Assembly (NCBI GenBank): GCA_025054955.1
Contig: JANWZE010000031.1
Span: 38,567 to 102,566, forward strand
Length of the DNA stretch: 64,000 nucleotides
Direction: 5' to 3'
From: Blastocatellia bacterium
GTDB lineage: Bacteria > Acidobacteriota > Blastocatellia > HR10 > J050
The notes below the pieces were generated by a model, which was not told where the DNA came from, ran no database searches, and saw nothing but the letters and a program-made list of their open reading frames with translations. Positions 1,318 through 63,177 of this stretch are shown here, piece after piece. The position numbers were made by a program, and so were the translations under genes. How positions within the stretch are numbered: the first letter of the stretch is position 1; each line of letters opens with the position of its first letter.

Positions 1318-2434
1318 GAAAATCCTGTTGGTTTTCCCTGTCGGTGAGCGTGGTGGCGCCGAGCGTGTCTTTGCGGCTATCGCGCGCCATCTGGATCGGA
1401 GGCGATTTGAGCCGGTAGCGTGGTTTTTGCGGCCCGGCTCGCTCGTGCAAGAAATTCAAGCGCTCGGTGTTCCAACATTCCTCGATCCGATCACGCGACT
1501 GAGCGATCCGGTCAATTACTGGCGAACGGTGAAAGCTGGGCGGCAGCTTATCATCAACGAGTCTATTCAACTGGTGTTAAGTTCGCTCGGATATGGTCAT
1601 CTATATGGTGGCGTAGCGGCGCTCTGCGCCAACGTTGATGCAATATGGTGGCAGCACGGCATTGCCTCGCTCACCAATTGGATTGATCAACTGGCTGCCG
1701 CCGTCCCGGCCAAACTTATCATCACGAGTTCATATATTGCAGCGCGCGCGCATGCCGACGCCTTGAGTTTGAACGGAACGCCACTGACCATCATTCATCC
1801 TGGCATTGAACCGGCGCCGGACAGAGTGTGGGATCGTCAACTGGTCTTGAAAGAATTTGGCATCGAGCCGGGAGCGACCGTCGTCGCCGCCATCAGCCGT
1901 CTCCAGCCCGGCAAAGGACAGGATGTGCTGATCCGCGCAGCTTCGCTGCTGATCGAGCGCTATCGGCAGGTCATGTTTCTAGTTGTCGGCAGCGAGCTGT
2001 TCAATAAGAGCCAGGGCTATGAATCAATGTTGAAGCGATTAGCTGTGGAGCTAGGCGTGGCCGATCATATTGTCTTCACCGGATTGCGTCATGACATTGA
2101 TCGTCTCCTGAGTGCGATTGACGTCTTCGTGCATCCGGCCACAGCGCCCGAATCATTTGGTCTGGCTGTTGTCGAAGCGATGGCCGCTGGCAAGCCGGTG
2201 ATTGTGACTGATGTCGGCGGCCCGCGCGAGACGGTCGTTGACGGCTACACCGGAATGATCATACCGCCACGCGATGTTCAGCAACTCGTCCACGCGCTCG
2301 CGGTGTTGATCGAGCGTCCCTCGTTACGAGAGGCGATGGGTCAAGCCGCGCGCGCGCACGTGCTGGAGCATTTCAGCCAGCAGACGATGATCCGAAAGGT
2401 CGAATCGGCGCTGGCGGCTGTGTTAGAGTGTTGA
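1304..2434 (+). CDS. glycosyltransferase, GT4 family
   Basis: Start taken at MSAPRKILLVFPVGERGGAERV (1304), which overlaps the upstream stop. C-terminal GT1 motifs (...FVHPATAPESFGLAVVEAMAAGKPVIVTDVGG...). Confidence 0.8.
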   Translation: MSAPRKILLVFPVGERGGAERVFAAIARHLDRRRFEPVAWFLRPGSLVQEIQALGVPTFLDPITRLSDPVNYWRTVKAGRQLIINESIQLVLSSLGYGHLYGGVAALCANVDAIWWQHGIASLTNWIDQLAAAVPAKLIITSSYIAARAHADALSLNGTPLTIIHPGIEPAPDRVWDRQLVLKEFGIEPGATVVAAISRLQPGKGQDVLIRAASLLIERYRQVMFLVVGSELFNKSQGYESMLKRLAVELGVADHIVFTGLRHDIDRLLSAIDVFVHPATAPESFGLAVVEAMAAGKPVIVTDVGGPRETVVDGYTGMIIPPRDVQQLVHALAVLIERPSLREAMGQAARAHVLEHFSQQTMIRKVESALAAVLEC

Positions 2435-2437
2435 CCA

Positions 2438-3196
2438 ATGACGGAACCGGCTGGCCCAGAATTTTATACCGGCGATTACTACCGCACGCGATGTGGCGGT
2501 CACGAGCTATTCGATTCATTCGATGGGCGTGAGCTTGAACCGATTCGCCGAAAAGCTATTGAACTAGCCCAACCGGGACCTGGGCAGCTCATCTTGGATG
2601 TCGGTTGTGGACGTGGCGAAATTGTCTTGGCCTGCGCACTACGGGGCGCGCGCGCTATCGGCATTGATTTCAGCCCGCATGCTATTGAGCTGACCCGACA
2701 TTTGCTGAACAAACTCCCGGCCGACGCCGCAGCGGCCGTTGTTCAGATGGATGCGGCTGATTTAGGATTTTGCTCCAATCAGTTCGATTCGATCCTGATG
2801 TTGGATTTCGTCGAACATGTCCCGCAAGATCGGCTGCGCCAGATCATTGCCCGTTGTCATGCCCTGTTGAAGCCGGGTGGGCGACTGATCATTCACACTG
2901 GACCGACGCAAGAATTCATTCGCTATGGACAGCACGCCAAGCGTCTGTTATACAAGCTGCTTGGGCGACCCGTTCCAGCCCTGATTACGTGGGAGGGCGA
3001 AGCGCGGCTGGCCGGTCATTGTAATTTGCATACCAAGCAGAGTCTTCGAGAAGCAATGGCAGTATTCGAGCAAAAATCGGTGCAATACCATTTTGCTATT
3101 GAGCAGGGATGGCTCAAGCGGTTGGTCCGAACAAGCGGCTTGACCCGTTATTTCGCTTTTCATTTGTGGGGCATTGGTGTTAAACGTTCATCATAA
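2438..3196 (+). CDS. class I SAM-dependent methyltransferase
   Basis: SAM-binding motif LDVGCGRGEIVLACALRGARAIGIDFS. It starts 4 nt after the upstream stop. Confidence 0.8.
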   Translation: MTEPAGPEFYTGDYYRTRCGGHELFDSFDGRELEPIRRKAIELAQPGPGQLILDVGCGRGEIVLACALRGARAIGIDFSPHAIELTRHLLNKLPADAAAAVVQMDAADLGFCSNQFDSILMLDFVEHVPQDRLRQIIARCHALLKPGGRLIIHTGPTQEFIRYGQHAKRLLYKLLGRPVPALITWEGEARLAGHCNLHTKQSLREAMAVFEQKSVQYHFAIEQGWLKRLVRTSGLTRYFAFHLWGIGVKRSS

Positions 3197-3386
3197 GTCA
3201 TCAATGGTGGTTTCATTCAGATTGTTCTGGCAGGATTAGAAAGCGCGGATTGAGAAGCAATCACACGAGACCATCAGCGGTGGTTTCATTCAGATTGTTC
3301 TGGCAGGATGAGAAAGCGCGGATTGAGAAGCAATCACACGAAACCATCAGCGGTGGTTTCATTCAAGCTGTTCTCACAGGAAGGCT
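3197..3386. repeat. tandem direct repeat, ~81-bp unit x ~2.3, beginning at the methyltransferase stop codon
   Basis: 'catca(a/g)(t/c)ggtggtttcattcagattgttctggcaggat(t/g)agaaagcgcggattgagaagcaatcacacga(g/a)ac' is repeated. The first copy includes the gene's last codons. Confidence 0.85.
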
Positions 3387-4850: not shown

Positions 4851-7057
4851 TGAAAATAGCCTTCGTTGTGCATGACTATCACAAAGCCGGCGGCCACAGC
4901 CGGTATGTGGCCGAGTTGGCCGAACGCTTCGCTCGCGAGCACGACGTGCATGTATTCGCCAACCGGATCGAAGGTGATCAGCCGGCCAACATTCATTTCC
5001 ATCATGTCCCAGCGTGGCGCGCGAGCGCGTTGAGCACGATCCTGACCTTCATCCTGCCGGCGACGCTGAAACTCACCGACCCGTTCGAGATCGTTCACGC
5101 TCAAGGTTTGTCCTGTTGGCGGGCTGATGTAGTGACGGCGCACATTTGTCAGGAAGGCTGGTTTGCCGCACAGGCAGCGTATCAAGGCGGACTCACTTGG
5201 CAGCAACGCCTCTTTCGCGCGCTCGTCGGACGGATGGAACGATGGGTCTATCAGCCAGCGCATTCATCGCACGTCATTGCCATTTCCCAAGCCGTGCGCC
5301 AGGATTTACGCCAGCACTACGGTCGCACACAAAATGTGCATGTGATTCATCACGGCGTGGACGTCACACGATTTCATCCGAATCAACGAGCGCGCCATCG
5401 GGCGCATACACGCGCCGTATGGGGATTGGCCGACACAGATTTCGTCGCCCTGTACGTCGGTGATTTGCAGAAAGGCGCTGCCACAGCCATTGAAGCCATC
5501 GCTCGCGTCGAGGGCGCGCGATTGGTTTTCGTCTCCCGCTCACAAGCAGATTCCTATCGGCAACAAGCAACAGCATTGAATGCCGGCGACCGCGTCATCT
5601 TTTGTCCGCCGACCGACCAGATTGAACGAATCTACGCTGCCGCCGACGCGCTCTTATTCCCCACGTTCTACGATGCGTTCGGCATGGTCATTACGGAAGC
5701 GATGGCGATGGGCTTGCCGGTTGTCACAAGTCGGGCAGCAGGCGCCGCCGAATTGATCGAGCATGAACGGAGCGGCATCATCGTTGAAAAAGCCGATGAT
5801 GCCACATCATTCAGCGTGGCCTTGCGACGCTTGATGACTGACGTTCAGCTCAGAGAACGACTCGGCGCAAACGCTCGCCAAACGGTTGAAGCACGCACGT
5901 GGGATCACGTCGCCGAACAAACAATGGCCGTCTACCGACGAGCGTATGAGCAAAAACACTCGGCCAAACCAACAATTGCGTTTCTGATCAACGGCGGTCC
6001 AACCACCCCCTTGAGCGCGCGCGCCGAAGCGTTCACCAAGCGATTGCAGGAAGGCTATGACATTCATCTGTTGTATCGCTCCCGACGCAAAATCGGCTCG
6101 CTGTTGCGATTGACAGCAGCGTTGTTTCGTATCAAGCCGTCGCTCAGTTATGTGTTCGACATGAGCTACTCCGGCGTGCTGGCGGCGGCGCTTTACAAGC
6201 TCTGGTCAAACAATCGGGTTGTTGTTGATACAGGCGATGTCATTTATGAGCTGGCCAAATCAATGGGCACACGAAGCCGTTTAGGACTTTGGTTGACAAA
6301 GCAACTGGAGACGCTGTCGTTAAACGTGGCCGATTATCTCATTGTGCGTGGCACGCGCCATAAGCAATGGCTCCAGTCACAAGGCCTCCATCGCGTCGAG
6401 GTCATTCAAGATGGTATCGAACGGGAAGCGTTTCGACCTGTGGACGCAACGGCGCTGCGCCGGCAACTGGCGTTGGAGAATGTGTTGACCATCGGACTTG
6501 TCGGGACATCCATCTGGAACGAGCGATGGGATATGGGCTACGGCTGGGAGCTGGTTGAGGCGCTGCGGCTGCTCAAAGGCGAGCCGGTGAAAGGCATTTT
6601 GATCGGCGATGGCGACGGCATTGCGCGACTGAAGGCACGTTGCCGGGAGTATGGCCTCGAAGACAATATGCTGTTTCTTGGTTATGTGCCGCACGAGCAA
6701 TTGCCGCTCTACCTCAACCTGATTGATGTGTGCATTTCTACGCAGACGAACGATCTGGTTGGTCAGGTGAGAACGACCGGCAAACTGCCACTCTATCTAG
6801 CCGCCGGACGATTCATTCTGGCGACCCGCGTGGGCGAGGCTGCGCTCGTGTTGGACGAGGACATGCTCGTGGATTATGAAGGCGTCAAAGATAGAGAGTA
6901 TCCGCAACGGCTCGCCCAGCGCATCCGCGCCATTGTGCGCGACCGCGCCCAGCTTGAACGCGGCGAGCGCAACCGGCGCGTGGCGGCTGAGTATTTCGAT
7001 TATGATGTGTTGGCTGAGCGGCTCAAAAACGTGATCTCCGGCTTGATAGGAGTATGA
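4847..7057 (+). CDS. two-domain glycosyltransferase (N-terminal GT4 domain plus a second GT-B-like domain)
   Basis: 736 aa. Residues 1-370 are a classic GT4 (MMKIAFVVHDYHKAGGHSRY ... FPTFYDAFGMVITEAMAMGLPVV). Residues ~375-736 form a second Rossmann-like GT-B domain. The gene overlaps the upstream stop. Confidence 0.7.
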   Translation: MMKIAFVVHDYHKAGGHSRYVAELAERFAREHDVHVFANRIEGDQPANIHFHHVPAWRASALSTILTFILPATLKLTDPFEIVHAQGLSCWRADVVTAHICQEGWFAAQAAYQGGLTWQQRLFRALVGRMERWVYQPAHSSHVIAISQAVRQDLRQHYGRTQNVHVIHHGVDVTRFHPNQRARHRAHTRAVWGLADTDFVALYVGDLQKGAATAIEAIARVEGARLVFVSRSQADSYRQQATALNAGDRVIFCPPTDQIERIYAAADALLFPTFYDAFGMVITEAMAMGLPVVTSRAAGAAELIEHERSGIIVEKADDATSFSVALRRLMTDVQLRERLGANARQTVEARTWDHVAEQTMAVYRRAYEQKHSAKPTIAFLINGGPTTPLSARAEAFTKRLQEGYDIHLLYRSRRKIGSLLRLTAALFRIKPSLSYVFDMSYSGVLAAALYKLWSNNRVVVDTGDVIYELAKSMGTRSRLGLWLTKQLETLSLNVADYLIVRGTRHKQWLQSQGLHRVEVIQDGIEREAFRPVDATALRRQLALENVLTIGLVGTSIWNERWDMGYGWELVEALRLLKGEPVKGILIGDGDGIARLKARCREYGLEDNMLFLGYVPHEQLPLYLNLIDVCISTQTNDLVGQVRTTGKLPLYLAAGRFILATRVGEAALVLDEDMLVDYEGVKDREYPQRLAQRIRAIVRDRAQLERGERNRRVAAEYFDYDVLAERLKNVISGLIGV

Positions 7058-8159: not shown

Positions 8160-9331
8160 TTAGGATTTTGTTTCTCAATTCATCATCGCAACTGGGCGGC
8201 GCCGAATGGGTGCTGCACGACGTGGTCACCCATCTGGATGCAAAGCGATTCACGTCATTGGTGGTTCTGCCAAAGCCGGGGCCGCTCCTTGATAAACTGC
8301 GCGACGCCGGCATTGACGTTCGACTTATGAGCCCATTCGAGCCGTTGCTTGGACTGGGTCGCTACAGTCGCTGGATGGAGATCGGGCGCATGCTGCCTGC
8401 CTTCGCCCGCGCTCTGACCGGGCTGTTTCACCTCAAGCGGATCATCGAACAAGAAAGGATTGACATCGTTCATGCACACGGCATCAAGATGCATTTTCTG
8501 AGTGGCGCGCTTCGTCTTGTGATTAACACGCCGCTGATATGGCATCTTCACGATTTCGTGCGTCAGCGCCGTTTTTACCCGCTGTATGTGCGGTTGGCCG
8601 AGGCATGCCCGTCATTGATCATTGTCAACTCGCATGCGGTCGCTGCTGACTTGGGTCGAATGCGGAACATTGCTGTCGTCCACAACGGCGTTGACATTGA
8701 TAGTTTTTCGCCGGTCGAGAGGCAGCGCGATGGTTCTCTGCGCGTCGGCATCATCGGCATGCTCGCGCCGTGGAAAGGGCATCATGTATTCCTCGACGCA
8801 GCTCGGCTGGTCAGTCGGCAAGTAGATCAGGTGACCTTCTGGATCATCGGCGACGAGATTTACGATACCGCCGGCCATCGAGGCTACCGACAACAGCTTG
8901 AGGAGTGGGTAAGGGTCAACAACCTTGAGCAGTATGTGAGGTTCACTGGCTTTCGCTCGGATGTCGCCCGCGTCATCAATACACTCGACGTCGTCGTCCA
9001 CGCCTCAATTGAGCCGGAGCCGTTCGGCCGTGTCTTGATTGAAGCGATGGCGTGTGGTAAACCGGTGATCGCCTCGAATGCAGGCGGAGTGCCAGAAATT
9101 GTTGAGCATGAAGTGACCGGCTTGTTGACTAGGCCGCGCGATGCCCAACAACTGGCGGGTATGATCATGAGATTGTTGCAGGACGAATCAGAGCGCAAGC
9201 GATTCGGATTGGCAGGCCGTCGGCGTGTCGAGCAGCATTTTTCGTTACAGCGGCAGGTTCATCGGATTGAAGCGATCTATGAATCGTTGATGAGTGGACG
9301 GTGGTCAGTGGGCAATGAAGAGGAAAGGTGA
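8156..9331 (+). CDS. glycosyltransferase, GT4 family
   Basis: MIRILFLNSSSQLGGAEWVL... and ...HASIEPEPFGRVLIEAMACGKPVIASNAGG.... 4-nt overlap with the upstream gene. Confidence 0.8.
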   Translation: MIRILFLNSSSQLGGAEWVLHDVVTHLDAKRFTSLVVLPKPGPLLDKLRDAGIDVRLMSPFEPLLGLGRYSRWMEIGRMLPAFARALTGLFHLKRIIEQERIDIVHAHGIKMHFLSGALRLVINTPLIWHLHDFVRQRRFYPLYVRLAEACPSLIIVNSHAVAADLGRMRNIAVVHNGVDIDSFSPVERQRDGSLRVGIIGMLAPWKGHHVFLDAARLVSRQVDQVTFWIIGDEIYDTAGHRGYRQQLEEWVRVNNLEQYVRFTGFRSDVARVINTLDVVVHASIEPEPFGRVLIEAMACGKPVIASNAGGVPEIVEHEVTGLLTRPRDAQQLAGMIMRLLQDESERKRFGLAGRRRVEQHFSLQRQVHRIEAIYESLMSGRWSVGNEEER

Positions 9332-9540
9332 TCGGTGGTTGTGGCCAGTGGTCAGTGGACAGGGGACAGTGGTTAGTAGACATTGAACAGGAGAAGTGGA
9401 CAGTGTTTGGTGGCTAGTGGTCAGTGGACCGGAGCTAGTTATTTCAATTAGCTCCTGGCTTCTGGCTCCTGATTTCTGGCTTCTGGCTTCTGACTCCTGG
9501 CTTCTGACTCCTGGCTTCTGACTTCTGACTCCTTCAACCT
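9332..9540. repeat. composite short-period repeat region: a 'cagtggacag'-type block, a 7-bp-stem palindrome (ggagcta...tagctcc), then ~9 copies of a 13-14-bp unit 'cctggcttctgact'
   Basis: Read directly from the sequence. The antisense ORF 9448..9633 is only the translation of this repeat. Confidence 0.85.
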
Positions 9541-10674: not shown

Positions 10675-10935
10675 TGAACTCGCACGGGCGTGAGTGCGAG
10701 GTGGTTGAGTGCATCTTTTGGGTCGGACAGCAAGGGGACGAGGCATGAGGCCTAGACAAATCCACGAGAGGAATTGTTCATGTTGCCGGTCGCGCCGCCC
10801 AGAAACGATGAGAATGGATCACAGGCGGGACCGTCTGTGCCACATTCTCGGAGGAACGATGTGCTTGCAATGTTTTTTCCCCATAGCCTCACTGCGCGAC
10901 AGGTTTTCTTGGGCAAAAATATTCTTTCCGATGAC

Positions 10936-11135: not shown

Positions 11136-11516
11136 ATGTCGGAAACCGCACAGTACATTCCGGTCTTGATCCTGCTGATTTTCACGTTGCTCATTGGCGG
11201 TGTGATGTTGTTGTTGCCTAGGTTGATTGCCCGTCGTCGCCCGACGCCGGAAAAGAATATGGCGTATGAGTGTGGCAAAGACCCCATTGGCTCGCCGCGC
11301 GAACGTTTTAGTATTGCGTTTTATCTGGTTGCCATGATTTTCATCTTGTTTGATATTGAGGCAATTTTCCTCATTCCGTGGGCAGTGGTGTTTCATGATC
11401 TGGCTGCGGAGTTTTCCAAGGCATTCGTTTTCGTTGAGATGATGATTTTCATTGCCATCTTATTGGTTGGTTACGTCTACGTGTGGAAGAAAGGCACGTT
11501 TGATTGGAATCGGTGA
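11136..11516 (+). CDS. nuoA: NADH-quinone oxidoreductase subunit A
   Basis: Small 3-TM protein. Conserved ...YECGKDPIGSPRERFSIAFYLVAMIFILFDIE.... Confidence 0.9.
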   Translation: MSETAQYIPVLILLIFTLLIGGVMLLLPRLIARRRPTPEKNMAYECGKDPIGSPRERFSIAFYLVAMIFILFDIEAIFLIPWAVVFHDLAAEFSKAFVFVEMMIFIAILLVGYVYVWKKGTFDWNR

Positions 11517-11600
11517 TCGTTATGATGGATGACAGGCGCATGGCCATCCATGTTTCATCGTAAACCTCCAACGTTTGATTGGAATTGGTGATCGTTATGA
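11497..11600. repeat. duplication of the 29-bp 3' end of nuoA (cgtttgattggaat(c/t)ggtgatcgttatga), repeated 75 bp downstream and overlapping the nuoB start
   Basis: Copies at 11497-11525 and 11572-11600. Confidence 0.85.
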
Positions 11601-12172
11601 ATGAGAACTGGCTCGACGCACAACGACGCGAGGCGCAAGCCAAGAGCGGTTTATCGGGCGTGTTGACGGCCAAATTCGACGAGTTGATTGGCTGGGCGCG
11701 CAAATCGAGCATGTGGCCGATGCAATTTGGATTGGCTTGTTGCGCCATCGAGATGATGGGGATGATCTCGGCGCGCAATGACATTTCACGGTTCGGCGCT
11801 GAGGTGTTTCGCGGTTCGCCGCGCCAATCCGACGTGATGATCGTGGCCGGGCGCGTCTCGCAGAAGATGGCGCCGGTGGTCAAACGACTCTATGAGCAGA
11901 TGGCTGAACCGCGATGGGTCATTTCGATGGGTGTGTGTGCCTCGACGGGTGGCATGTTTGATAATTACGCGCTGGTGCAGGGCGTGGATAAGATCATTCC
12001 TGTGGACATTTATGTACCGGGCTGCCCGCCCCGGCCGGAGATGTTGTTGTATGCCATGATGAAGCTACAAGAAAAAATTGAGCGGCAGCGACTGCACGAA
12101 CAGATGGCGGAGAAACCCAAACGGGTGCTACCCAAGGAGCCAATCTTCCCAGATAAAGCCTATATGAAATAG
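11597..12172 (+). CDS. nuoB: NADH-quinone oxidoreductase subunit B
   Basis: ...CCAIEMM...[10 protein letters not shown]...PGCPP... motifs carrying the N2 Fe-S cluster ligands. Start set at MNENWLD. Confidence 0.9.
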
Positions 12173-17939: not shown

Positions 17940-18065
17940 TGGACTGTGGAGAGCGGACGGTGGACAGCACGCGTCACCTCTCCACTGGTCACTGAATGGG
18001 AGAGTGGACGGTGGACAGCGCTCATCAACTGTCCACTGACCACTGAATTCGTGGTGGGAAAGAAC
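17940..18065. repeat. 'GTGGACAG'-type short-period repeat block with an imperfect palindrome, directly after the nuoG stop (family B)
   Basis: gtggactgtggagagcggacggtggacagc...cagcgctcatcaactgtccactgaccactgaa. The tail is shared with the 23838-23880 block. Confidence 0.8.
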
Positions 18066-19170: not shown

Positions 19171-19728
19171 ATGGAACAGACGCTTTTCATCGTGTTTGCC
19201 GGGATTGCCGTCGTGGCGGCGCTCAACGTCTTGCTGCGACGTAATCCGCTGCATAGCGCCTTATCATTGCTTGCCGTAATGGCAGCGTTGACAGGATTGT
19301 ACATATTGCTCAATGCTCATTTCATCGCCGTTGTGCAGGTCATCATTTACGCCGGCGCCATGTTGGTCCTCTTCCTGTTCGTCATCATGTTGCTTAATGT
19401 GCGAACGGAAGAGACACGGATAGATCGTTGGCCGGTGATGAAATGGTTGGCAATTCCCTTTGCCATCGGATTAGCCGGACAGATCGTGTATGTCCTGCGG
19501 TTGTTTGAGGCGAATCCAGTGCCGGTCGGCAACGATATTGGATTGACTGAGTCTGTTGGCAAAGCGATATTCACCAGGGGATTATTGCCGTTTGAACTCA
19601 CTTCAATCCTGATCTTGGTTGCGATCATCGGAGCGATGGTGTTGGCGCAAAGGGATCGCGGATCACGGACCACGAATCACGGAGCACGGATCACGGACCA
19701 CGAATCACGGACCACGGAAAGAGGTTGA
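19171..19728 (+). CDS. nuoJ: NADH-quinone oxidoreductase subunit J, with an unusual C-terminal repeat tail
   Basis: NuoJ-like TM core. It follows nuoH directly with no nuoI between them. The C-terminus DRGSRTTNHGARITDHESRTTERG is encoded by a tandem 'cacgga(c/g)cacgaat' repeat. The start may lie upstream (ORF opens at 19087). Confidence 0.8.
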   Translation: MEQTLFIVFAGIAVVAALNVLLRRNPLHSALSLLAVMAALTGLYILLNAHFIAVVQVIIYAGAMLVLFLFVIMLLNVRTEETRIDRWPVMKWLAIPFAIGLAGQIVYVLRLFEANPVPVGNDIGLTESVGKAIFTRGLLPFELTSILILVAIIGAMVLAQRDRGSRTTNHGARITDHESRTTERG

Positions 19729-19729
19729 T

Positions 19730-20032
19730 ATGATTCCAATGTCATGGTACTTAGCATTGGCCGCTGTGCTGTTTACAATTGGCGCTGTTGGCGTGGTCGT
19801 CAAGCGCAATGTCATTTCCATGATGATTGCCATTGAGTTGATGCTCAATTCGGCGAATCTGACACTGGTGACATTCTCCAGTTACTTTGGCGAGCTGAGC
19901 GGACAGGTGTTAGTTTTCTTCGTCATGGTCGTGGCCGCGGCAGAAGCGGCTGTCGGATTGGCGATTGTCGTGTTGTTATTCCGCAATCGTCAAACGATCA
20001 ACGTTGATGAAGCCAGCATGTTGAAGTTGTGA
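19730..20032 (+). CDS. nuoK: NADH-quinone oxidoreductase subunit K
   Basis: 100-aa 3-TM protein MIPMSWYLALAAVLFTIGAVGVVVKRN.... Confidence 0.9.
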   Translation: MIPMSWYLALAAVLFTIGAVGVVVKRNVISMMIAIELMLNSANLTLVTFSSYFGELSGQVLVFFVMVVAAAEAAVGLAIVVLLFRNRQTINVDEASMLKL

Positions 20033-20183
20033 TGGGGATCAGAAGTCTAGGTAAAGGATGTTGTATTCAACGTTGATGAAGCGAGCCTGTTGAAGTTGTG
20101 ATGGGGGTGAGAAATCTAAAACACATTGCATTCAACGTTGATGAAGCCAGTCTTGTTGAAACCTGTGATGCGATGAGAAGCCC
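20000..20183. repeat. three tandem ~65-bp copies of the nuoK 3' end (caacgttgatgaagc(c/g)ag...ttgaag(t/a)tgtgatgggg)
   Basis: Copy 1 is the true gene end and stop. Copies 2 and 3 fill the nuoK-nuoL spacer. Confidence 0.85.
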
Positions 20184-22152: not shown

Positions 22153-23730
22153 ATGGACGTTCTACTGGATCATCCGTTGACCTTGGTCGTGTTTTTGCCT
22201 ACAGTCGGCGCGGCGCTATTGTTGCTCTACAGCTTGTGGAGCGGCAAAGACGATGATGTCGTGCGATTCATCGCCTTTGTGTTTTCTTTGCTGACATTCA
22301 TCATGTCGCTGCCGCTGGTAGTTGGATTCAACCCGCGACTGAGTGGCATGCAGTTCACTGAGCGAGTGCCATGGATCAACAGTTTTGGCCTAAACGTGGA
22401 GTATCACCTCGGTCTGGATGGATTGAGTCTGTGGTTAGTGGTGTTGACGACAGTTCTGACCGTTGTCTCGGTGCTGGCCAGTTGGCAGTCAATTCAGCGA
22501 CATGTCAGCGAGTTCTTCATCTTCCTCTTGTTGTTGGAAACAGGCATTCTCGGCGTATTTGTTGCGCTCGACATGTTTCTTTTTTACTTGTTTTGGGAAG
22601 TGATGCTTGTGCCGATGTACTTTCTGATCGGCGTGTGGGGCGGCGAGCAGCGCATCTATGCGGCCATCAAGTTCATCATTTACACGATGGCTGGCTCGGT
22701 GCTGATGCTAGTGGCGATGCTGGCTCTCTACTATTTGAACGGGCAAGCAACCGGGCAGTATACGTTCGATCTCGTCCAGATCACCAAGAACCTGCAGCAA
22801 GGCGTCTTGACGTTGGACCCACAGGTTCAAATGTGGTTGTTCCTCGGTTTTGCCATTGCTTTCATGATCAAGGTTCCGCTCTTCCCATTGCATACATGGT
22901 TACCGGATGCGCACGTTGAAGCGCCGACGGCCGGTTCGATCATGCTGGCTGGCGTCTTGCTGAAGATGGGTACGTATGGCTTGTTGCGATTCAATCTGCC
23001 GATGTTTCCTCAAGCGACAGCCGAATGGACGACGCCGATTTGCATTCTCGCTGTCATTGGCATCATCTATGGCGCGTTGGTCGCTATGGTGCAGCCCGAC
23101 ATGAAAAAGCTCGTCGCCTATTCGTCAGTCAGTCACATGGGTTTCGTCGTGCTCGGCACATTTGCCCAGACGGAGCAAGCATTGCACGGCGCCATTTTTC
23201 AGATGCTCAGTCACGGCGTTGCCACGGGCGCATTGTTTTTGCTGGTTGGTATTATTTACGACCGGCGTCACACGCGGTTGATTGCTGATTTTGGCGGCAT
23301 CGCTAACGTCATGCCGGTTTACACGGGGATGTTTGGCATCATCATGCTGGCCTCGGTCGGGTTGCCAATGTTAAGTGGGTTTGTCGGCGAGTTTCTCGTC
23401 CTGGTTGGTACATACACGTCTAAGATCGCCTATGCTCGCTGGTTCACCGTCCTGGCCGCTCTGGGCGTGATTCTCTCTGCTGTATATCTGCTGTGGTTGT
23501 TCCAACGGGTTTTCATGGGCGAGATCACCAATCCGGAGAACGCTGCATTGGCGGATGTGAACGCACGCGAAAAAATGGCGATGATGCCGCTGGTGGTGCT
23601 GGTGATTGTGTTAGGCGTCGTGCCAAATTGGTTTTTGCGGAAGATGGACCCGGCTGTGCGAGCGGTGATGCCGGCGGCTGTGACAGCGGTGGAGAGTGGG
23701 CATGCTCAGTGGACAGTGGGCGGTGAGTAG
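22153..23730 (+). CDS. nuoM: NADH-quinone oxidoreductase subunit M
   Basis: Antiporter-like subunit. Start MDVLLDH placed immediately after the nuoL stop. Confidence 0.9.
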   Translation: MDVLLDHPLTLVVFLPTVGAALLLLYSLWSGKDDDVVRFIAFVFSLLTFIMSLPLVVGFNPRLSGMQFTERVPWINSFGLNVEYHLGLDGLSLWLVVLTTVLTVVSVLASWQSIQRHVSEFFIFLLLLETGILGVFVALDMFLFYLFWEVMLVPMYFLIGVWGGEQRIYAAIKFIIYTMAGSVLMLVAMLALYYLNGQATGQYTFDLVQITKNLQQGVLTLDPQVQMWLFLGFAIAFMIKVPLFPLHTWLPDAHVEAPTAGSIMLAGVLLKMGTYGLLRFNLPMFPQATAEWTTPICILAVIGIIYGALVAMVQPDMKKLVAYSSVSHMGFVVLGTFAQTEQALHGAIFQMLSHGVATGALFLLVGIIYDRRHTRLIADFGGIANVMPVYTGMFGIIMLASVGLPMLSGFVGEFLVLVGTYTSKIAYARWFTVLAALGVILSAVYLLWLFQRVFMGEITNPENAALADVNAREKMAMMPLVVLVIVLGVVPNWFLRKMDPAVRAVMPAAVTAVESGHAQWTVGGE

Positions 23731-23935
23731 TGGAGAGTGAGAGCGGTTTGCAAATGAGTTTATCCTGGGGGGCACGCACGTGCATCAGCCCGCAAGATGC
23801 AGGCCCCAGGCTAACGGCAATGGAAAATCGCTCTAGAGTGGACAGTCCACAGCACTCATCAACTGACCATTGATACAAACCGCCGACCACCGGCCACGAA
23901 TCACTGGCGTACTTGGGATTTCAGATTTTTAGTTT
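23690..23935. repeat. composite repeat: family-B 'gtggacag/gtggagag' blocks flanking a ~90-bp family-A structured element (23745-23836)
   Basis: Left B part 23690-23744, A element 23745-23836, right B part 23838-23880. The arrangement suggests A inserted into B. Confidence 0.7.
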
Positions 23936-29715: not shown

Positions 29716-29789
29716 GCCTGCGCCCGATCAATAAGCAACCGTCTCCTTGATTTCAATCGGCTTCTGCGTACCGAGAATGTTCTATAGCG

Positions 29790-29867
29790 ACAATTGCCTT
29801 TACCCGGGGAGCACCCGCCTCATGTACGCTTGAGTGGGCGCTCCTAGGGTAGGGCAAACCGCTCTAG
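29790..29867. repeat. degenerate copy of the structured family-A repeat
   Basis: cccggggagcacccgcctcatgtacgcttgagtgggcgctcctagggtagggcaaaccgctctag, compare with the copies at 23745 and 43231. Confidence 0.5.
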
Positions 29868-32312: not shown

Positions 32313-32426
32313 ATGAAAAACATTCGACAACAACTCGGACAGATTGATCCAATTACCTTGGCTTTGGCTCTCTTGCTGGCGCTTGGCACGTTCTTTAGCG
32401 GTGCTTGTCCCATTCCAACGCAGTAA
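32313..32426 (+). CDS. small peptide 1 of a tandem paralogous array (37 aa, MKNIRQQLGQIDPITLALALLLALGTFFSGACPIPTQ)
   Basis: Own RBS AAGGAG 6 nt upstream. Conserved core QLGQIDPITL(L/A)LALLLALGT-GACPI is shared with peptides 2-5. Confidence 0.6.
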   Translation: MKNIRQQLGQIDPITLALALLLALGTFFSGACPIPTQ

Positions 32427-32466
32427 GGAGTCTCTTTCTATCCAAAAATATAAAAGGAGAACGACA

Positions 32467-32568
32467 ATGAACAGAATCAAGCAGCAATTTGGTCAGATTG
32501 ACCCGATCACTTTACTGTTAGCTTTGCTCCTGGCCCTGGGCACAGGTGCTTGCCCTATTAGGTTTTAG
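32467..32568 (+). CDS. small peptide 2 (33 aa, MNRIKQQFGQIDPITLLLALLLALGTGACPIRF)
   Basis: RBS AAGGAGA. Paralog of peptide 1. Confidence 0.6.
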   Translation: MNRIKQQFGQIDPITLLLALLLALGTGACPIRF

Positions 32569-32610
32569 CAATTGAGATTTCTCTTAACTTCATATCAAGG
32601 AGTGATGATT

Positions 32611-32712
32611 ATGAATAAGATCAAACAGCAACTCGGACAGATTGACCCCATCACCCTATTGCTGGCTTTATTGTTGGCGCTGGGCACGGGTGCTTGCCCG
32701 ATTAGCTTTTAG
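32611..32712 (+). CDS. small peptide 3 (33 aa, MNKIKQQLGQIDPITLLLALLLALGTGACPISF)
   Basis: RBS AAGGAG 8 nt upstream. Paralog. Confidence 0.6.
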   Translation: MNKIKQQLGQIDPITLLLALLLALGTGACPISF

Positions 32713-32767
32713 TCGTAATTCAGGTTTTTCTTACTTTCAAAATATCAAATAAAAAAGGAGAAATGAC

Positions 32768-32875
32768 ATGAATAAGATCAAACAGCAACTCGGACAGATT
32801 GACCCCATCACCCTATTGCTGGCTTTGTTGTTGGCGCTGGGCACAGGCGCTTGCCCTATTGCGCTGGGTCGCTAA
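32768..32875 (+). CDS. small peptide 4 (35 aa, MNKIKQQLGQIDPITLLLALLLALGTGACPIALGR)
   Basis: RBS AAAAGGAGA. Paralog. Confidence 0.6.
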   Translation: MNKIKQQLGQIDPITLLLALLLALGTGACPIALGR

Positions 32876-32911
32876 TCACGACGCATCAGCCTGCAAATCA
32901 GGAGACGAAAC

Positions 32912-33013
32912 ATGAAAGCGATTACGCGACAGCTCGGACAAATAGATCCCGTTACCATTTTGATAGCCCTGTTGCTTGCACTAAGCGCGGGAACTTGTTC
33001 AATCGTACCCTGA
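32912..33013 (+). CDS. small peptide 5 (33 aa, MKAITRQLGQIDPVTILIALLLALSAGTCSIVP), most divergent copy
   Basis: RBS CAGGAGA. Paralog. Confidence 0.55.
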   Translation: MKAITRQLGQIDPVTILIALLLALSAGTCSIVP

Positions 33014-33036
33014 CCAGCTTTCAGGTCAACATCGGG

Positions 33037-33077
33037 ACCAAGCTGAGCATTTACCAAACCATCACGCTCAGCTTGGT
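33037..33077 (+). terminator. perfect 12-bp-stem hairpin (accaagctgagc-N17-gctcagcttggt) between the peptide array and the ECF sigma gene
   Basis: Seen directly. Followed by a weak T-rich stretch 'tcctgttat', so it may be a terminator or attenuator that allows read-through. Confidence 0.5.
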
Positions 33078-33108
33078 TCCTGTTATGGAGAGTTATGGAG
33101 GATCAGCT

Positions 33109-33708
33109 ATGGCTGCACAAATGGTTGCAAGATTGACGGATTTTCAGTTAGCTCGAGCTTCAGCCGCTGGGGATCATCGGGCTTTTGAAATGCTTTACTG
33201 CCAGCATCACCGACGGGTTTACAGTCTGTGCTTGAGGATGCTGAGGAACCACGAAGAGGCGGAGGATGTGACCCAAGAGGTTTTTCTCCAGGTCTATCGT
33301 AAGATCAATAGTTTTCAGGGCAATTCGGCTTTCACCACCTGGCTTCACCGATTGACAGTTAACATGGTGCTCATGTATTTACGGCGCAAACAGAAGGGGC
33401 ATAGGCAGGAAGAGACGTTGGAAGCAAACCAAATGGCCGATCCACTGGAGAATCGCAAACAGGTTGGGCATCCTGATTTTCCCATTGAGGCAGTTGATTT
33501 GCAGAACGCGATCAATGATCTACCAAATGGCTACCGCCAGGTCTTTATCCTGCATGATATCGAAGGATATGAGCACAATGAGATTAGTCAATTACTGGGC
33601 ATTAGCGTCGGAACGGCGAAATCTCAACTGCACAAAGCTCGGTTGAAACTGCGACAAGCGCTGCGAGCTACCCACCCGCAACAACTCGTGACGGCGACCG
33701 TTCAATAA
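33109..33708 (+). CDS. ECF-type (sigma-70 family) RNA polymerase sigma factor
   Basis: Region 2 (...DVTQEVFLQVYRKINSFQGNSAFTTWLHRLTVNMVLMYLRRK) and region 4 HTH (...NEISQLLGISVGTAKSQLHKARLKLR). Start set at MAAQMVARL with RBS GGAGGA, with 33085 as an alternative. No anti-sigma gene follows. Confidence 0.8.
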   Translation: MAAQMVARLTDFQLARASAAGDHRAFEMLYCQHHRRVYSLCLRMLRNHEEAEDVTQEVFLQVYRKINSFQGNSAFTTWLHRLTVNMVLMYLRRKQKGHRQEETLEANQMADPLENRKQVGHPDFPIEAVDLQNAINDLPNGYRQVFILHDIEGYEHNEISQLLGISVGTAKSQLHKARLKLRQALRATHPQQLVTATVQ

Positions 33709-43102: not shown

Positions 43103-43390
43103 CGAGCAAGGCCAGCGCGTTCAGCAACGTTTCATCCGCACGCATGTTTCGACGTGTATTAGTAGAGATGAGCAGGGCTAGATTGCGTTCAGTGACGTTT
43201 CATCCGCGCGCGTATCTGGACACGAGCTAGAGCGATTTGCGAATGAGTTTATCCTGGGGCGCGCACTTCCAGCATGCATGAGCCCGCAAGATGCGGGCGC
43301 TCCCCGGGTAAAGGCAAATGAAAATCGCTTTAGTGAGAAGGATGAGCGCGGCACAGGGTCGCGTTCAGTGACGTTTCATCCGCGCGCGTA
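43103..43390. repeat. repeat cluster: three copies of a ~35-bp unit derived from the GT2 gene 3' end (gcgttcag(t/c)(g/a)acgtttcatccgc(g/a)cgc(g/a)t(a/g)t) flanking a ~100-bp family-A structured element (43231-43333)
   Basis: Unit copies at about 43126, 43185 and 43357. The 43357 copy contains the gene's stop and last codons. Confidence 0.8.
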
Positions 43391-44867
43391 TCTCGACTGT
43401 CCGCAGCCAATCCTTATAGGCGTCATATTGATTCATCGTGGTTAAAGGCAAGGCTCGGTCTGTATTCTCTTCCCAGCGCCGGACCAAATAAAGCGATTCA
43501 TAGATGCGTCCGATTTCATACTCTCGACTGATGCGCAGCCCGACGGCATAATCTTCGCCATAGCTCGTATTGGGAAACTTGATCTGTCGTAGCACAGGCA
43601 CATAAAACGCGCGAGGCGCGCCCAGACCAAGAACCCGTAACGCATTATTGCGACCGTTCTCCTGCGTCCATTCCCGATGATCAATCAACCCGGGGGGGGT
43701 CTCTTCGAGGTTGAAGTTGACGGTCGTGTACGAGCCAATGACCATCGCATATCGAGGCGCGGCCGTTGGCGATTCCCAGAATTTGTCAACCATCGTTTGT
43801 AGGGTATGTGTGTCACGATACAAATCATCCGAATCAAGCTGGACAGCAATTAACCCGCACTCCGGTGAATCAATCGCTTCATTCCAGCAACCACCAATAC
43901 CGAGATCGGTTCGTTGAGGAATCTTGTGAATCAAATTCTTATGCTGTCGAGCCGAGTTTTTGACGATGTCTGTTGTGCCGTCAGTCGAGTGGTTATCCAC
44001 CACGATGACGTTATAAGCGAACGAGGTTTCCTGGCTCAGGGCGCTATTGATAGCATCGGCAATCGTTTTCTCTCGATTACGCACTGGAATGACGATGCTT
44101 GCCATCACGGGAAAAGCGGTTTCGGTCGCCGGCGGTGATTGAAAGACCGGCTCCAAAAACGCGCCGATACGACGTAGATGGGCAGTAGCAATTCGCTCCA
44201 TCTCCAGTTGGTAATCGCGGTTATTGGGGTCAACATAACGATGGACAGGCTCCAGATCGGCTTGCTCGTCAATGGCCACCGGGCAGCGCGTGTAGAGCGG
44301 TTCCGGAACGCGGACAATGGCTGAATCAATTGAGATTTTCAGCCGAAGATCGTACACGCCGCCCCAGCGGATCGTTGCTTCAATGCGCCCGTGCTGCCGT
44401 CGCGCCCGGTCTGCTGCTTGTTTTGAGATCAGCAACAGCGAACCAAAATCAAAGGTGTCGCGGATGCTGCCCAGTTGATAATCAATGGTCGGGTGTTCGG
44501 TCACCTGACCGTGATTCCGCTCTCTAAAATCGGCATATATGATTCCGGCCTGTGTATCATCCATCACGGCGAGCAACCGTTCGATGGCTTGCTGACTGAT
44601 GTCCACCTCGTGACCGGGTAAAAGAAGCAACAGATGCTCAGTCGTGACAGCATCGAGGGCGCGCTCGATGCAATCACCGGAGAACCAGGAATCGGCCTGA
44701 AGGAATTGCACGCCGTCAGGCGGCGCTTGTAGCGGTGGGGTTTCCCGATGTAACACCACGGTGCGCTCGATCAGCGGATTCTGCGTGAACAGTTCGAGCT
44801 GGCGAGCAAACCCAGAAGCGCCAGCGTGATCAGAGAAATCAGGTATGATAGCTGTCAACGGTTTCAT
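43365..44867 (-). CDS. glycosyltransferase family 2 protein (two-domain; GT2 catalytic domain in the C-terminal half)
   Basis: ...MASIVIPVRNREKTIADAINSALSQETSFAYNVIVVDNHSTDGT... with a DxD-like QLDSDD. Confidence 0.7.
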   Translation of the reverse strand: MKPLTAIIPDFSDHAGASGFARQLELFTQNPLIERTVVLHRETPPLQAPPDGVQFLQADSWFSGDCIERALDAVTTEHLLLLLPGHEVDISQQAIERLLAVMDDTQAGIIYADFRERNHGQVTEHPTIDYQLGSIRDTFDFGSLLLISKQAADRARRQHGRIEATIRWGGVYDLRLKISIDSAIVRVPEPLYTRCPVAIDEQADLEPVHRYVDPNNRDYQLEMERIATAHLRRIGAFLEPVFQSPPATETAFPVMASIVIPVRNREKTIADAINSALSQETSFAYNVIVVDNHSTDGTTDIVKNSARQHKNLIHKIPQRTDLGIGGCWNEAIDSPECGLIAVQLDSDDLYRDTHTLQTMVDKFWESPTAAPRYAMVIGSYTTVNFNLEETPPGLIDHREWTQENGRNNALRVLGLGAPRAFYVPVLRQIKFPNTSYGEDYAVGLRISREYEIGRIYESLYLVRRWEENTDRALPLTTMNQYDAYKDWLRTVEIRARMKRH

Positions 44868-47650: not shown

Positions 47651-47805
47651 AGTCGTTGTGGTTATAAAGCCATTGTCATTTCGCTCGTTTTCGACGGGCT
47701 GCTGGTGAGCCTGTTTGGACGCGCAAAGCGGCGGTGTTTCTGTCGCGCTATGTCGAGACTGAATGCTAACGCCGACCTCAACAGCAAGTCGTATGTGAGA
47801 TGATC

Positions 47806-47969
47806 GTGCCGGTTCATGTTTCTCTTTGTGTCGTGTGCCGAATTAGTGCGTTAGCTCATAGTTCTCTTCATTCGGCAGGTCGTATGCAAGGTTATTGCGT
47901 TGGTTCATGGATCGCTTCGTGTGGTGCGCAAGGTTATTGTGTTGGTTCATGGCTCTCTTCGTTCGGCAG
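47806..47969. repeat. tandem partial duplications (~40-bp unit x ~3) of the adenosine deaminase gene 3' end
   Basis: gcaaggttattg(c/t)gttggttcatgg(a/c)tc(g/t)cttcgt... is repeated. The last copy encodes ...LPNEESHEPTQ*. Confidence 0.8.
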
Positions 47970-52329: not shown

Positions 52330-52425
52330 TAAAAATCCGGGAGCGCACGCTTCCGGCGTGCCGAGCTGTCCGCTCCAACAAGCATGCAAGATGCATGCGC
52401 TCCCAGGGGGATGGCAGGGAAGGTT
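52330..52425. repeat. deleted or variant copy of the family-A structured repeat
   Basis: ccgggagcgcacgc...agcatgcaagatgcatgcgctcccaggggg preserves the outer stem gggagcgca/tgcgctccc. Confidence 0.45.
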
Positions 52426-54028: not shown

Positions 54029-54155
54029 GCGATCTTTTGCTCGACGCGCAAGCCGTGCATAGTGCAGACCAAGTAACGCCGGGTCACCACTGATCCATTG
54101 CTTGCAGCCAAGGGAATCGCTCCTATGCAATAGCACGCCACGAAGAAAAGGGGAG

Positions 54156-54190
54156 CGCAGGCGGAAACGCCTGTGCCACATACTCAAGAG
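54156..54190 (+). repeat. family-C motif copy (gcgcaggcggaaacgcctgtgccacatactcaagag)
   Basis: Shares the 'cacaggc-N6-gcctgtgccacat(t/a)ctcaa' core with three other intergenic sites. Confidence 0.6.
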
Positions 54191-54290
54191 ATGTGGGTGA
54201 GAAAGTTGCACAATCCAAAACCAACGACGGCACGTTACAGCTTGACCCTTGGTTCATGATCGTGACGAACCGAGCGCTTTTGCAGTGATG

Positions 54291-54410
54291 TTTGGCTTAC
54301 TCATTCGTATCGAACATGCCCACTGAGCGGCTTGGCTTGCTCGTTCGTATCAAACATGCCCACTGAGCGGCTTGGCTTGCTCATTCGTATCGAACATGCC
54401 TACTGAGCGG
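54291..54410. repeat. three tandem 40-bp repeats containing the aguB 5' end (…cttggcttgctc(a/g)ttcgtatc(g/a)aacatgcc(c/t)actgagcgg)
   Basis: Period exactly 40 bp, three copies. The third copy carries the presumed ATG at 54396. Confidence 0.85.
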
Positions 54411-55295
54411 AGATTCACCATTGGCCTTGTGCAGATGGCCATGTCGGCTGAGCCGGCAGAGAACCTGGCGCGCGCGCTGGAACATGTTCGCGCGGCAGCC
54501 CGGTTGGGCGCGCAGGTCGTTTGCCTGCCCGAACTATTCCGCTCGCGCTACTTCTGTCAGCACGAGGACGCGGCGTGGTTTGACTTAGCCGAACCCATTC
54601 CCGGACCAACCACTGAGGCGCTCTCCGCAGTGGCTCAGCAAGAGGCTGTGGTTGTGATTGCGTCAGTGTTTGAGCGGCGCGCGCCGGGCCTCTACCACAA
54701 CAGCGCGGCTATCATTGACGCTGATGGCCAGCTTGTTGGCCTTTATCGCAAGATGCACATTCCTGACGATCCGGCCTATTATGAAAAATTCTATTTCACG
54801 CCTGGCGACCTCGGTTTCCGTGCGTTTGAAACGCGCGTCGGGCGGCTCGGCGCGTTGATCTGTTGGGATCAGTGGTATCCAGAGGGCGCGCGCTTGACGG
54901 CGCTTCGTGGCGCCAGTGTGCTGTTTTACCCGACAGCCATTGGGTGGCATCCGCATGAGAAAGAGCAGTACGGCGCGGTGCAGCGCGATTCGTGGCGCAC
55001 CATTCAGCGCGGCCATGCGATTGCCAACGGCGTGTACGTGGCGGCCGTCAATCGTGTGGGACATGAAATCCCTCCAACAGGTGGGGCAGGCATCGAGTTT
55101 TGGGGCAGCTCATTCATTGCCGACCCGCAAGGCGTGATCATTGCTGAAGCCTCCACCGACAAGGAAGAAATTCTGCTCGGTGATGTTGACCCGGAACGCA
55201 TCGAAGATGTGCGGCGCAACTGGCCATTCCTGCGCGACCGGCGGATTGATGCGTATGTCGGGCTGGACCGGCGCTATCTCGAAGAGGAGCGGTGA
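54396..55295 (+). CDS. aguB: N-carbamoylputrescine amidase (carbon-nitrogen hydrolase family)
   Basis: Nitrilase-superfamily Glu-Lys-Cys triad (E50 of ...VCLPELF..., K in ...YRKMHIP..., C in ...LICWDQWYPE...). Strong similarity to plant and bacterial N-carbamoylputrescine amidases. Adjacent to aguA. The start is uncertain because it sits inside the repeat. Confidence 0.8.
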   Translation: MPTERRFTIGLVQMAMSAEPAENLARALEHVRAAARLGAQVVCLPELFRSRYFCQHEDAAWFDLAEPIPGPTTEALSAVAQQEAVVVIASVFERRAPGLYHNSAAIIDADGQLVGLYRKMHIPDDPAYYEKFYFTPGDLGFRAFETRVGRLGALICWDQWYPEGARLTALRGASVLFYPTAIGWHPHEKEQYGAVQRDSWRTIQRGHAIANGVYVAAVNRVGHEIPPTGGAGIEFWGSSFIADPQGVIIAEASTDKEEILLGDVDPERIEDVRRNWPFLRDRRIDAYVGLDRRYLEEER

Positions 55296-59859: not shown

Positions 59860-59911
59860 GATCTCCTCCGTCAAAAAAGTCACAGATTGCTCGGATTCCC
59901 ACTGATTTTTC

Positions 59912-59950
59912 TCCTTTGAGCATGTGGCACAGGCATTCGCGCCTGTGCTC
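59912..59950 (-). repeat. family-C motif copy (reverse orientation) in the BNR gene leader
   Basis: Reverse complement reads gagcacaggcgcgaatgcctgtgccacatgctcaaagg. Confidence 0.6.
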
Positions 59951-60206
59951 TATTTTCATGCTTCTTGGCGAGCCTCAGCTCATGAACGATTCCTCGGTGA
60001 AGACCAACGTTGGGCGTGTCCCTCCTTAGTGTCTTTCTCATAACTGTGTTGCCCGAAATGTTGAGACACTGGAGAGTAGGCGTGAGTTTGAAAAAATTTT
60101 CACCGTTGTGAGAATGGGGATCCCCGGACGGGAGAAGCGATGAAAATCCGGCCACGGATGAATACAGATGGACACCGTGTGATGAGACGATCCATGTTGA
60201 TGTGTA

Positions 60207-63153: not shown

Positions 63154-63177
63154 CGCGCGCCACGAAGGATAAAAATG

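Follow-up and report, generated by a model that had tools for sequence, protein, structure and literature searches.

To our knowledge, the repetitive extragenic palindromes (REPs) of bacteria and their partner enzymes, called REP-associated tyrosine transposases (RAYTs), have been studied almost only in Proteobacteria, where the REP is lineage-specific. The kind of system in which a RAYT is paired with REPs, with bacterial interspersed mosaic elements (BIMEs) or with REPINs is well known, and proteins of the sort discussed below are already so named by NCBI and JGI. Here we consider five dispersed repeats, copies A to E, in a 64,000-nt stretch of the genome of a Blastocatellia bacterium (positions 38,567 to 102,566 of contig JANWZE010000031.1), which we call the window. 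NuoL assigns the window to Acidobacteriota, its best named matches being Acidobacteriota and Blastocatellia at 68-76% identity, and not to Chloroflexota or cyanobacteria, as heptamer repeats had suggested. A sequence-only reading of the window had proposed a REP/BIME-like element, a small miniature inverted-repeat transposable element (MITE) or a family of structured small RNAs (sRNAs). The five sites are genuine, related repeats and are composite in build. We think it probable that they represent a REP/BIME-like family that is served by a clade of RAYTs and has been partly captured in a MITE-like shell, so that the first of the three proposals holds for the core of the repeat and the second suits the shell around A, B and C; the third is without support.

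The E. coli system of REPs or BIMEs and TnpA-REP, the REPtron (structure 4ER8; subclass 2.2 of Quentin et al. 2018), resembles the one described here in its palindromes of foot and hairpin, in the inverted pairing of two REP variants and in the way the units flank a single-copy gene for an HUH/Y1 transposase, and the protein found here has both the Y---NP and the HUH motif. It differs in that the foot here is CCTGGGAGC rather than GTAG, the 6-bp GC stems are perfect and lack a bulge, the protein carries a conserved WxSRGYLPHFD block and is no more than a distant relative of 4ER8 (E=1.4e-6), and the REP sequence crosses phyla instead of being lineage-specific. The REPINs known from Pseudomonas and Enterobacteria (Bertels and Rainey; RAYT groups 2 and 3) are likewise inverted doublets, with a single long hairpin or a junction as their fold; they are non-autonomous and are paired with a RAYT. 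Inheritance of REPIN-RAYT systems is described as mostly vertical within lineages, whereas a nearly unchanged 26-mer occurs here under at least 12 phylum labels. Subclass 2.4 of Quentin et al. 2018 (group 4 of Bertels; Cyanobacteria, Bacteroidetes and various phyla) shares with the present system an NH[IFV]H motif, a scatter over phyla and the presence of REPs in frame within the RAYT gene (here in L124, protein P0081), but its Y motif is YIxNNP rather than YIHENP and its REPs have GT[AG]G feet. The TIRYT or TIRtron repeats, which include examples from Acidobacteria (Di Nocera 2013), are similar in that tyrosine transposase genes lie between inverted repeats that are also dispersed and moderately abundant; they differ in sharing the motif GGGGWSAS and in their mostly subclass 2.1 proteins with a C-terminal helix-turn-helix, both absent here. 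The GTAG- and CGTC-tagged REP superfamilies outlined in the same source were considered and rejected, since their tetranucleotide at the end of the stem-loop is not present and the foot here is CCTGGGAGC / GCTCCCAGG. The shell, for its part, is like TA-duplicating MITEs (IS630/Tc1-mariner, IS5) in being about 100 nt long and non-coding, with repeats of 12-20 nt, CTAG/TTAG junctions and clean empty sites, and unlike them in that its interior is a REP doublet of a different (Y1) system and no parent insertion sequence (IS) was found.

The kinship of the five sites was assessed with a covariance model, R1, that was trained solely on 30 doublets from other genomes and run unfiltered over the window. 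Its top five distinct places were exactly the five sites, in the order D, E, C, A and B. Copy D (52336-52407, forward strand), a canonical bare REP doublet of 72 nt that lies 17 nt past the stop codon of a DUF2911 gene and before ychF, scored 59.7 bits (E=4.5e-9), and copy E (63615-63674, reverse strand), a bare doublet of 60 nt after an Exo_endo_phos gene, scored 49.1 bits (E=4.2e-7). The other three copies are of the shell type. Copy C (43227-43333, forward strand), the best preserved of the shells, lies between genes for a GT2 glycosyltransferase and an FTR1 iron permease, and its core, a REP doublet at 43253-43308 on the same strand, reached 35.8 bits (E=1.3e-4). Copy A (23739-23836, forward strand), between nuoM and nuoN, contains a degenerate doublet at 23764-23810, also on the forward strand, that reached 24.0 bits (E=0.019). 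For copy B (29781-29867, reverse strand), upstream of a gene for a TonB-type outer-membrane protein, the core at 29804-29848 gave 14.0 bits (E=1.4) and is not significant alone; R1 by itself being insufficient, we count B as a member because it is homologous to copy C, to which it is tied by common termini and a 25-nt stretch at 96% identity. A second model, R2, which describes a single REP unit, was significant on both arms of D and both arms of E, and gave 34.9 bits on the right arm of C (43282-43307; E=1.6e-5) and 20.6 bits on the right arm of A (23788-23810; E=0.014).

The sequence-only reading had described five intergenic copies of one unit of about 90 bp. All five sites are there, no more than a few bases from where it had placed them, but they are not copies of one such unit: the long string with its termini occurs only in A, B and C, and D and E share just the core of 60-72 nt. 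It was right that all are intergenic, in that the five copies fall between genes with Pfam support and the open reading frames (ORFs) that overlap them have no Pfam match. Copies B and E are oriented opposite to A, C and D. The density of five copies per 64-kb window suggests that there are many per genome.

Two REP units, inverted relative to each other, make up the core doublet. In each of them a foot of 9 nt, CCTGGGAGC, leads into a GC-rich hairpin of 6 bp that has the form GCNNGC-loop-GCNNGC. The loop of one arm is AAGAT when read on the top strand, and that of the other is usually TTCCR or GTCYC. In copies D and E the elements are ordered as CCTGGGAGC, GCNNGC-TTCCR-GCNNGC, a spacer, GCNNGC-AAGMT-GCNNGC and GCTCCCAGG; in full, copy D reads CCGGGAGC / GCACGC TTCCG GCGTGC / spacer / GCATGC AAGAT GCATGC / GCTCCCAGG. 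The foot CCTGGGAGC / GCTCCCAGG, with its GGAG one base from the stem, is common to the window copies and to the 148 instances listed from elsewhere. The cores of the shell-type copies are worn to different degrees. Copy C retains an intact right REP, with GCCCGC AAGAT GCGGGC and GCTCCCCGG, next to a degenerate left one (loop CTTCCAG); the right REP of copy A, GCCCGC AAGAT GCAGGC, shows a single mismatch in its stem and has partly lost its foot; and in copy B the inner hairpins have decayed. Fold energies computed for the copies as single-stranded DNA were -19.9 kcal/mol for A (z -2.15), -20.0 for B (z -3.31), -24.9 for C (z -3.28), -22.1 for D (z -3.8; outer stem plus hairpins) and -20.2 for E (z -2.89), and the folds show the expected outer stem with inner hairpins. 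Intrinsic terminators were considered and rejected, as a T-run is lacking after all five copies, whichever strand is read. In a Logan contig from a near-identical strain (L001), 2 of the 171 bases aligned around copy A differ from the window; both differences (contig positions 9835 and 9842, window positions 23771 and 23778) lie within the core hairpin region and could be strain variation or an assembly error in a GC-rich hairpin.

Selection on secondary structure, which had been proposed from the window alone, is borne out, although by other evidence than that first cited. The three outer stems that were said to covary between copies, cctgggg/ccccagg, ctgggagcgc/gcgctcccag and gggagcgca/tgcgctccc, are one and the same stem, CCTGGGAGCGC/GCGCTCCCAGG, taken to differing extents, and the only exchange in it within the window is a single A-T to G-C in copy A. 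The inner hairpin cccgc-N5-gcggg, said to be retained, is intact in C and E but has a mismatch in A, is absent in B and is replaced in D by gcatgc-aagat-gcatgc. That replacement is itself compensatory, GCCCGC/GCGGGC in C and E standing against GCATGC/GCATGC in D, and stems of GCGGGC/GCCCGC, GCAGGC/GCCTGC and GCCGGC/GCCGGC occur in other genomes with the loop AAGAT kept. Scanning genomes, one per species, with the pattern GCNNGCAAGNTGCNNGCGCTCCCNGG, which leaves two stem pairs unconstrained, we found the variable free stem pair to be Watson-Crick in 139 of the 148 instances listed (GC 64, AT 42, CG 33), compared with the 35% expected from base frequencies alone. For many of the instances an inverted partner lies 20-100 nt upstream, and 51 distinct doublets were collected, most commonly 70-80 nt long. 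The covariation check was run on 30 aligned doublets from other genomes, for a structure of a 9-bp outer stem and two 6-bp hairpins: 97% of the cells were paired, seven pairs varied on both sides, and not one of 500 shuffles came up to these figures. The left hairpin, on which the search had placed no constraint, was 95% paired, with covariation in four of its six pairs. In some genomes (e.g., L009 and L048) the two hairpins of one doublet bear different stems, which favors two separate hairpins over one long duplex. The hairpin structure is under selection. Insertion into pre-existing palindromes was examined as a general rule and rejected: only 2 of the 51 doublets have at least 8 complementary bases among 12 flanking ones, and the mean number of complementary flank bases is 3.7, with a null of 3.0.

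The link to RAYTs comes from other genomes. The ORF at 2343-3029 on the reverse strand of locus L099 reaches 94.4 bits with NF047646 of NCBIfam ("REP-associated tyrosine transposase", for which the cut-off is 80), also matches Pfam Y1_Tnp, and has E. coli TnpA-REP (4ER8) as its sole relative in the PDB. On one side its gene borders on an exact copy of the 26-mer, and on the other side on CTGGGAGCGCGGGCGTCCCGCCCGC. The query that pointed to L099 was a YafM sequence, and the result was then verified by NCBIfam, Pfam and the PDB; an IS200 TnpA query had no matches. A homologue 51% identical to the L099 protein, from a member of the Pyrinomonadaceae (L047), has a REP at the start of its gene, and five more homologues, three of them labeled Chloroflexota, Anaerolineae and Verrucomicrobia, all have R1 matches at their gene ends, with E-values from 1e-9 to 0.04. 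In all, RAYT genes were flanked by REP units in seven of seven loci inspected, from several phyla. The L099 query found 1176 homologues at E<=1e-10 and the L047 query 4683 at E<=1e-20, many of which are named RayT or REP-associated tyrosine transposase by their sources, and at the ends of many annotated RAYT ORFs the peptides GGTPALP and PGSAGILPA, translated from the REP, can be read. One RAYT gene of Verrucomicrobia (L124, 3001-3684) has a complete REP doublet in frame at 3153-3215, which adds the peptide ARASCPQNKDAGGTPALRQES to the protein. In an alignment of 30 RAYTs the HUH (MPNHxH) and Y..NP motifs are invariant, and an N-terminal WxSRGYLPHFD block is present. Y---NP is the signature of class 2, or TnpA-REP, proteins (Quentin et al. 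2018). Judging from the HUH motif, the scattered taxonomy and the REPs inside the gene, the clade appears nearest to subclass 2.4. Clustering of all ORFs from the 120 loci listed with the 26-mer found no protein family recurrently beside it, which is expected with one RAYT per genome; a tyrosine transposase gene adjoins the motif in two of the loci listed (L099 and L047).

The 26-mer, i.e. the foot CCTGGGAGC with its GC hairpin and the loop AAGAT, was found at no fewer than 120 loci in about 76 assemblies (a number tallied by eye from accession prefixes) and under at least 12 phylum labels. Record titles name Acidobacteriota, Verrucomicrobiota, Chloroflexota, Binatia, Myxococcales, Syntrophobacteraceae, Gamma- and Alphaproteobacteria, Obscuribacterales, Actinomycetota, Nitrospinota, Latescibacterota and Planctomycetaceae, among others listed, and the labels also include Myxococcota, Desulfobacterota and Melainabacteria. 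The GC content of these loci ranges from 45% to 72%, and several matches lie on megabase contigs or complete chromosomes. Carriage by phages or plasmids was considered and rejected, with one match among 2.9 million viral contigs and none among the plasmids of PLSDB. In some other genomes, e.g. of Chloroflexaceae and Syntrophobacteraceae, the REP lies inside outer inverted repeats specific to each lineage. Several genomes have REPs in head-to-tail arrays with periods of 39, 44, 48, 78 or about 98 nt rather than in inverted doublets, namely at L024 4015-4118, L027 2466-2530, L026 780-849, L060 4544-4665, L046 4384-4720 and L072 4428-4747.

Copies A, B and C carry, around the core, a shell that makes elements of 87-107 nt without coding capacity and with terminal inverted repeats of 12-20 nt (AGAGCGRTTTGC...). 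The termini are CTAGAGCGRTTTGC / AAATCGCTYTAG, with AATCGCTYTAG as the pattern of the right end, and the arms next to them read GAGTTTATCCTGGGG ... CCCCGGGTAAAGGCAA; an IS that drives the shell would be expected to have the ends AGAGCGGTTTGCAAATGAG. In copy A the left terminus is mutated (GAGAGCGGTTTGC) and the right one is AATCGCTCTAG, and copy B ends in TAGAGCGGTTTGC and TATAGCGAC. Two empty sites show that shell and core were inserted as one unit. The paralogous one belongs to copy C, which lies in the second of three units of a local repeat of about 68 nt (43117-43397, between the GT2 and FTR1 genes) with a conserved 37-nt head, GCGTTCAGTGACGTTTCATCCGCGCGCGTATCT.GAC; Tandem Repeats Finder reported nothing there, and the units were aligned by script. 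Copy C is a 103-nt insertion (43231-43333) between CTAG and TTAG, and when these positions are left out, the second unit aligns end to end with the first (43117-43184, forward strand), with 51 of 73 columns identical and the junction TTAG/CTAG. The orthologous empty site belongs to copy A: a relative whose NuoL is 94% identical (L142) has no copy between nuoM and nuoN, the gap there being 39 nt and both flanks aligning. Copy A is also absent from a 73%-identical relative and is kept in a second assembly of a near-identical strain. The junctions carry CTAG, TTAG, TAG or AG, and the same bases form part of the inverted termini. IS630- and IS5-type elements typically have TA-centered flanking repeats of 2-4 bp. 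In L047, a shell that shares its termini with A, B and C and ends in a near-perfect terminal pair of 20 nt is found some 100 nt upstream of the RAYT gene, and matches to the terminus in metagenomes are heterogeneous, a few having other cargo (L128 and L129) and five representing one coding region.

The mechanism we propose for this family is modeled on the systems of E. coli, Stenotrophomonas and Marinomonas (Corneloup et al. 2021; Quentin et al. 2018). The RAYT, an HUH/Y1 enzyme of the TnpA-REP kind, would take REP units as its DNA substrates, binding the folded hairpin together with the foot on single-stranded DNA and reading the foot as CCTGGGAGC, with GGAG where other REPs have GTAG. By the same analogy, it would cut and rejoin nearby, and units would in this way be copied or maintained in intergenic DNA. 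Units of the GCCCGCAAGATGCGGGCGCTCCC type would be expected to bound the cognate RAYT genes. For the shell we favor a MITE that took up a REP doublet and that a DDE-type transposase, of the IS5 or IS630 kind, would have mobilized. Copies D and E are bare, well-formed doublets, and A, B and C have a decaying doublet within a shell.

Several observations weigh against this explanation. A tblastn search of the 64-kb window found no RAYT gene, and the cognate gene of the source genome must lie outside the window or have been lost. The foot is neither GTAG nor GT[AG]G, and binding and cleavage by this clade are proposed purely by analogy. Copies A, B and C are degenerate, with B failing R1, and the phylum labels are titles of metagenome-assembled genome (MAG) records. 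As for the shell, TA, TAG and YTAR are indistinguishable as readings of its flanks (2-4 bp), a Y1-type insertion beside YTAG would fit both empty sites equally well, and a scan of metagenomes for the shell terminus, comprising 15 loci, showed no transposase beside the terminus and no parent IS. These last points also bear on whether A, B and C were themselves moved by a RAYT, in which case the mobile unit would be the longer palindrome and the YTAG at both ends a Y1 target or cleavage tetranucleotide instead of a duplication. The shell near the L047 RAYT gene favors such an origin, as do the single ..AG/TAG at both empty sites, consistent with insertion 3' of a short, fixed target, the lack of any DDE transposase found with these termini and the outer inverted repeats that enclose the REP in Chloroflexaceae and Syntrophobacteraceae. 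We nevertheless regard it as unlikely, given that the shells have true terminal inverted repeats of 12-20 nt, which Y1 elements do not need, that the same termini surround unrelated cargo in metagenomes (L128 and L129), and that the TA-centered flanks are of the kind typical of IS630 and IS5. It is a little less likely still that the elements are kept chiefly for use by the host, as stabilizers of mRNA 3'-ends, as operon attenuators (copy A in nuoM-nuoN) or as protein-binding sites, with the link to a transposase being secondary. Roles of this kind have been suggested for REPs (Di Nocera 2013), and they would suit the intergenic position of all copies, the placement of D 17 nt after a stop codon, the stability of the predicted folds and the high conservation of the unit across phyla. 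However, copy A is missing from the same operon in both a close and a more distant relative, making it dispensable there, which argues against an essential role at nuoM-nuoN; moreover, orientation relative to transcription varies, the stems are not followed by a T-run, and three of the five copies are decaying.

Structured sRNAs or cis-regulatory RNAs, the third proposal of the sequence-only reading, would also account for covariation that keeps base pairing and for stable folds, but covariation is equally expected of a DNA hairpin. The repeat is a near-palindrome whose two strands score about equally with R1, its orientation relative to genes is mixed, and elsewhere the units form tandem arrays (periods of 39-78 nt) and lie alongside a gene for a single-strand DNA transposase. 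Rfam searches, run at the gathering threshold on the window and on 17 loci and at an E-value threshold on two copies, returned no relevant family, and we consider an RNA family very improbable. Chance similarity, or similarity due to low-complexity GC-rich sequence, deserves even less credence. Short pieces such as CCTGGGAGCGC are, it is true, nearly as frequent in shuffled sequence (5 found, 1.8 expected), and a loose criterion of a hairpin plus GCTCC yields 3.8 matches there; yet the long patterns are expected only 0.01 times, the independently trained R1 gives E-values down to 4.5e-9, and the empty sites reveal discrete insertions. For A, C, D and E, chance is already refuted. A REP/BIME-like family with a RAYT behind it, partly housed in a MITE-like shell, is the account that we prefer.

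For the window alone this is a modest result, in that the repeats are explained and no new kind of system is involved. What goes beyond the routine is the near-identity of the 26-mer under at least 12 phylum labels, as given by MAG labels and the at least 120 loci listed, combined with a virtual absence of the system from viral contigs and PLSDB plasmids, together with the non-GTAG foot and the nesting of a doublet in a MITE-like shell. Searching the literature for the sequence strings returned only human primers and the like, and neither this REP sequence nor a description of the repeats of this clade was found in the searchable literature. Work linking RAYTs or REPINs with these phyla was not found there beyond Di Nocera 2013 and Quentin 2018, and Nunvar 2010 does not mention them. 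We tentatively suggest, as a possibility somewhat short of even, that a single REP/RAYT system has kept its 26-nt unit almost letter for letter across many phyla, either as a domesticated REPtron that repeatedly crossed between them or through long co-conservation with its enzyme, and that its units have repeatedly been captured in unrelated, lineage-specific inverted-repeat shells. Such co-conservation, if true, would have lasted far longer than that in the REPIN systems so far described, which are lineage-specific. A near-identical REP across many phyla of soil and sediment bacteria offers a natural test of how tightly an HUH/Y1 enzyme and its hairpin co-evolve, and the 26-nt unit is a ready substrate for biochemistry on this RAYT clade. 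It is also a simple annotation marker for intergenic repeats in Acidobacteriota, Chloroflexota and Verrucomicrobiota, where repeats break assemblies and create false ORF extensions.

Other repeats lie close to some of the copies. In a second dispersed repeat of about 95 nt, the module GGAATCGCTCATGAGC..GCACGCCACGAAGGATGAAAATGGAG is followed by a hairpin, CACAGGC-loop-GCCTGTG, with CCACATTCTCAAAGG after it; this repeat occurs at 54112-54195, 63134-63228, 59902-59994 (reverse strand) and 10799-10860, with its 5' module alone at 60221-60271, 63484-63534 and 63576-63613. Copy E is fused on one side to the last of these modules. The hairpin has a GGAGC-like foot, yet R2 gave E=3.4, and we rejected this repeat as a REP variant. 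The repeat-rich stretch upstream of copy E also contains a 28-nt inverted repeat pair (63253-63280 and 63423-63450), 93% complementary and 142 nt apart. Runs of 7-nt tandem repeats (GTGGACA-like, CTGGCTT-like and CGGATCA-like) occur at gene ends and in intergenic DNA, at 9281-9533, 19653-19722, 23703-23740, 17940-18039 and 23835-23904; such heptads border copy A on both sides, and one of them seems to have overwritten its left terminus. Other short repeats, tandem or nearly so and with periods of 73, 42, 40, 69 and 75 nt, are present at 3199-3381, 47788-47962, 54292-54411, 19998-20118 and 11496-11612. In a more distant relative (L144), the nuo operon has genes for a HEPN-domain protein and a DUF8091 protein inserted between nuoK and nuoL (5326-5993). 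Finally, positions 32313-33013 of the window (forward strand) hold five small tandem ORFs of 33-37 aa with the pattern M.KIKQQLGQIDPITLLLALLLALGTGACPI.., which is like a signal peptide or lipobox and has only a few residues after the Cys, and the ORF that directly follows them (32851-33708) resembles, by eye, an extracytoplasmic function (ECF) sigma factor.

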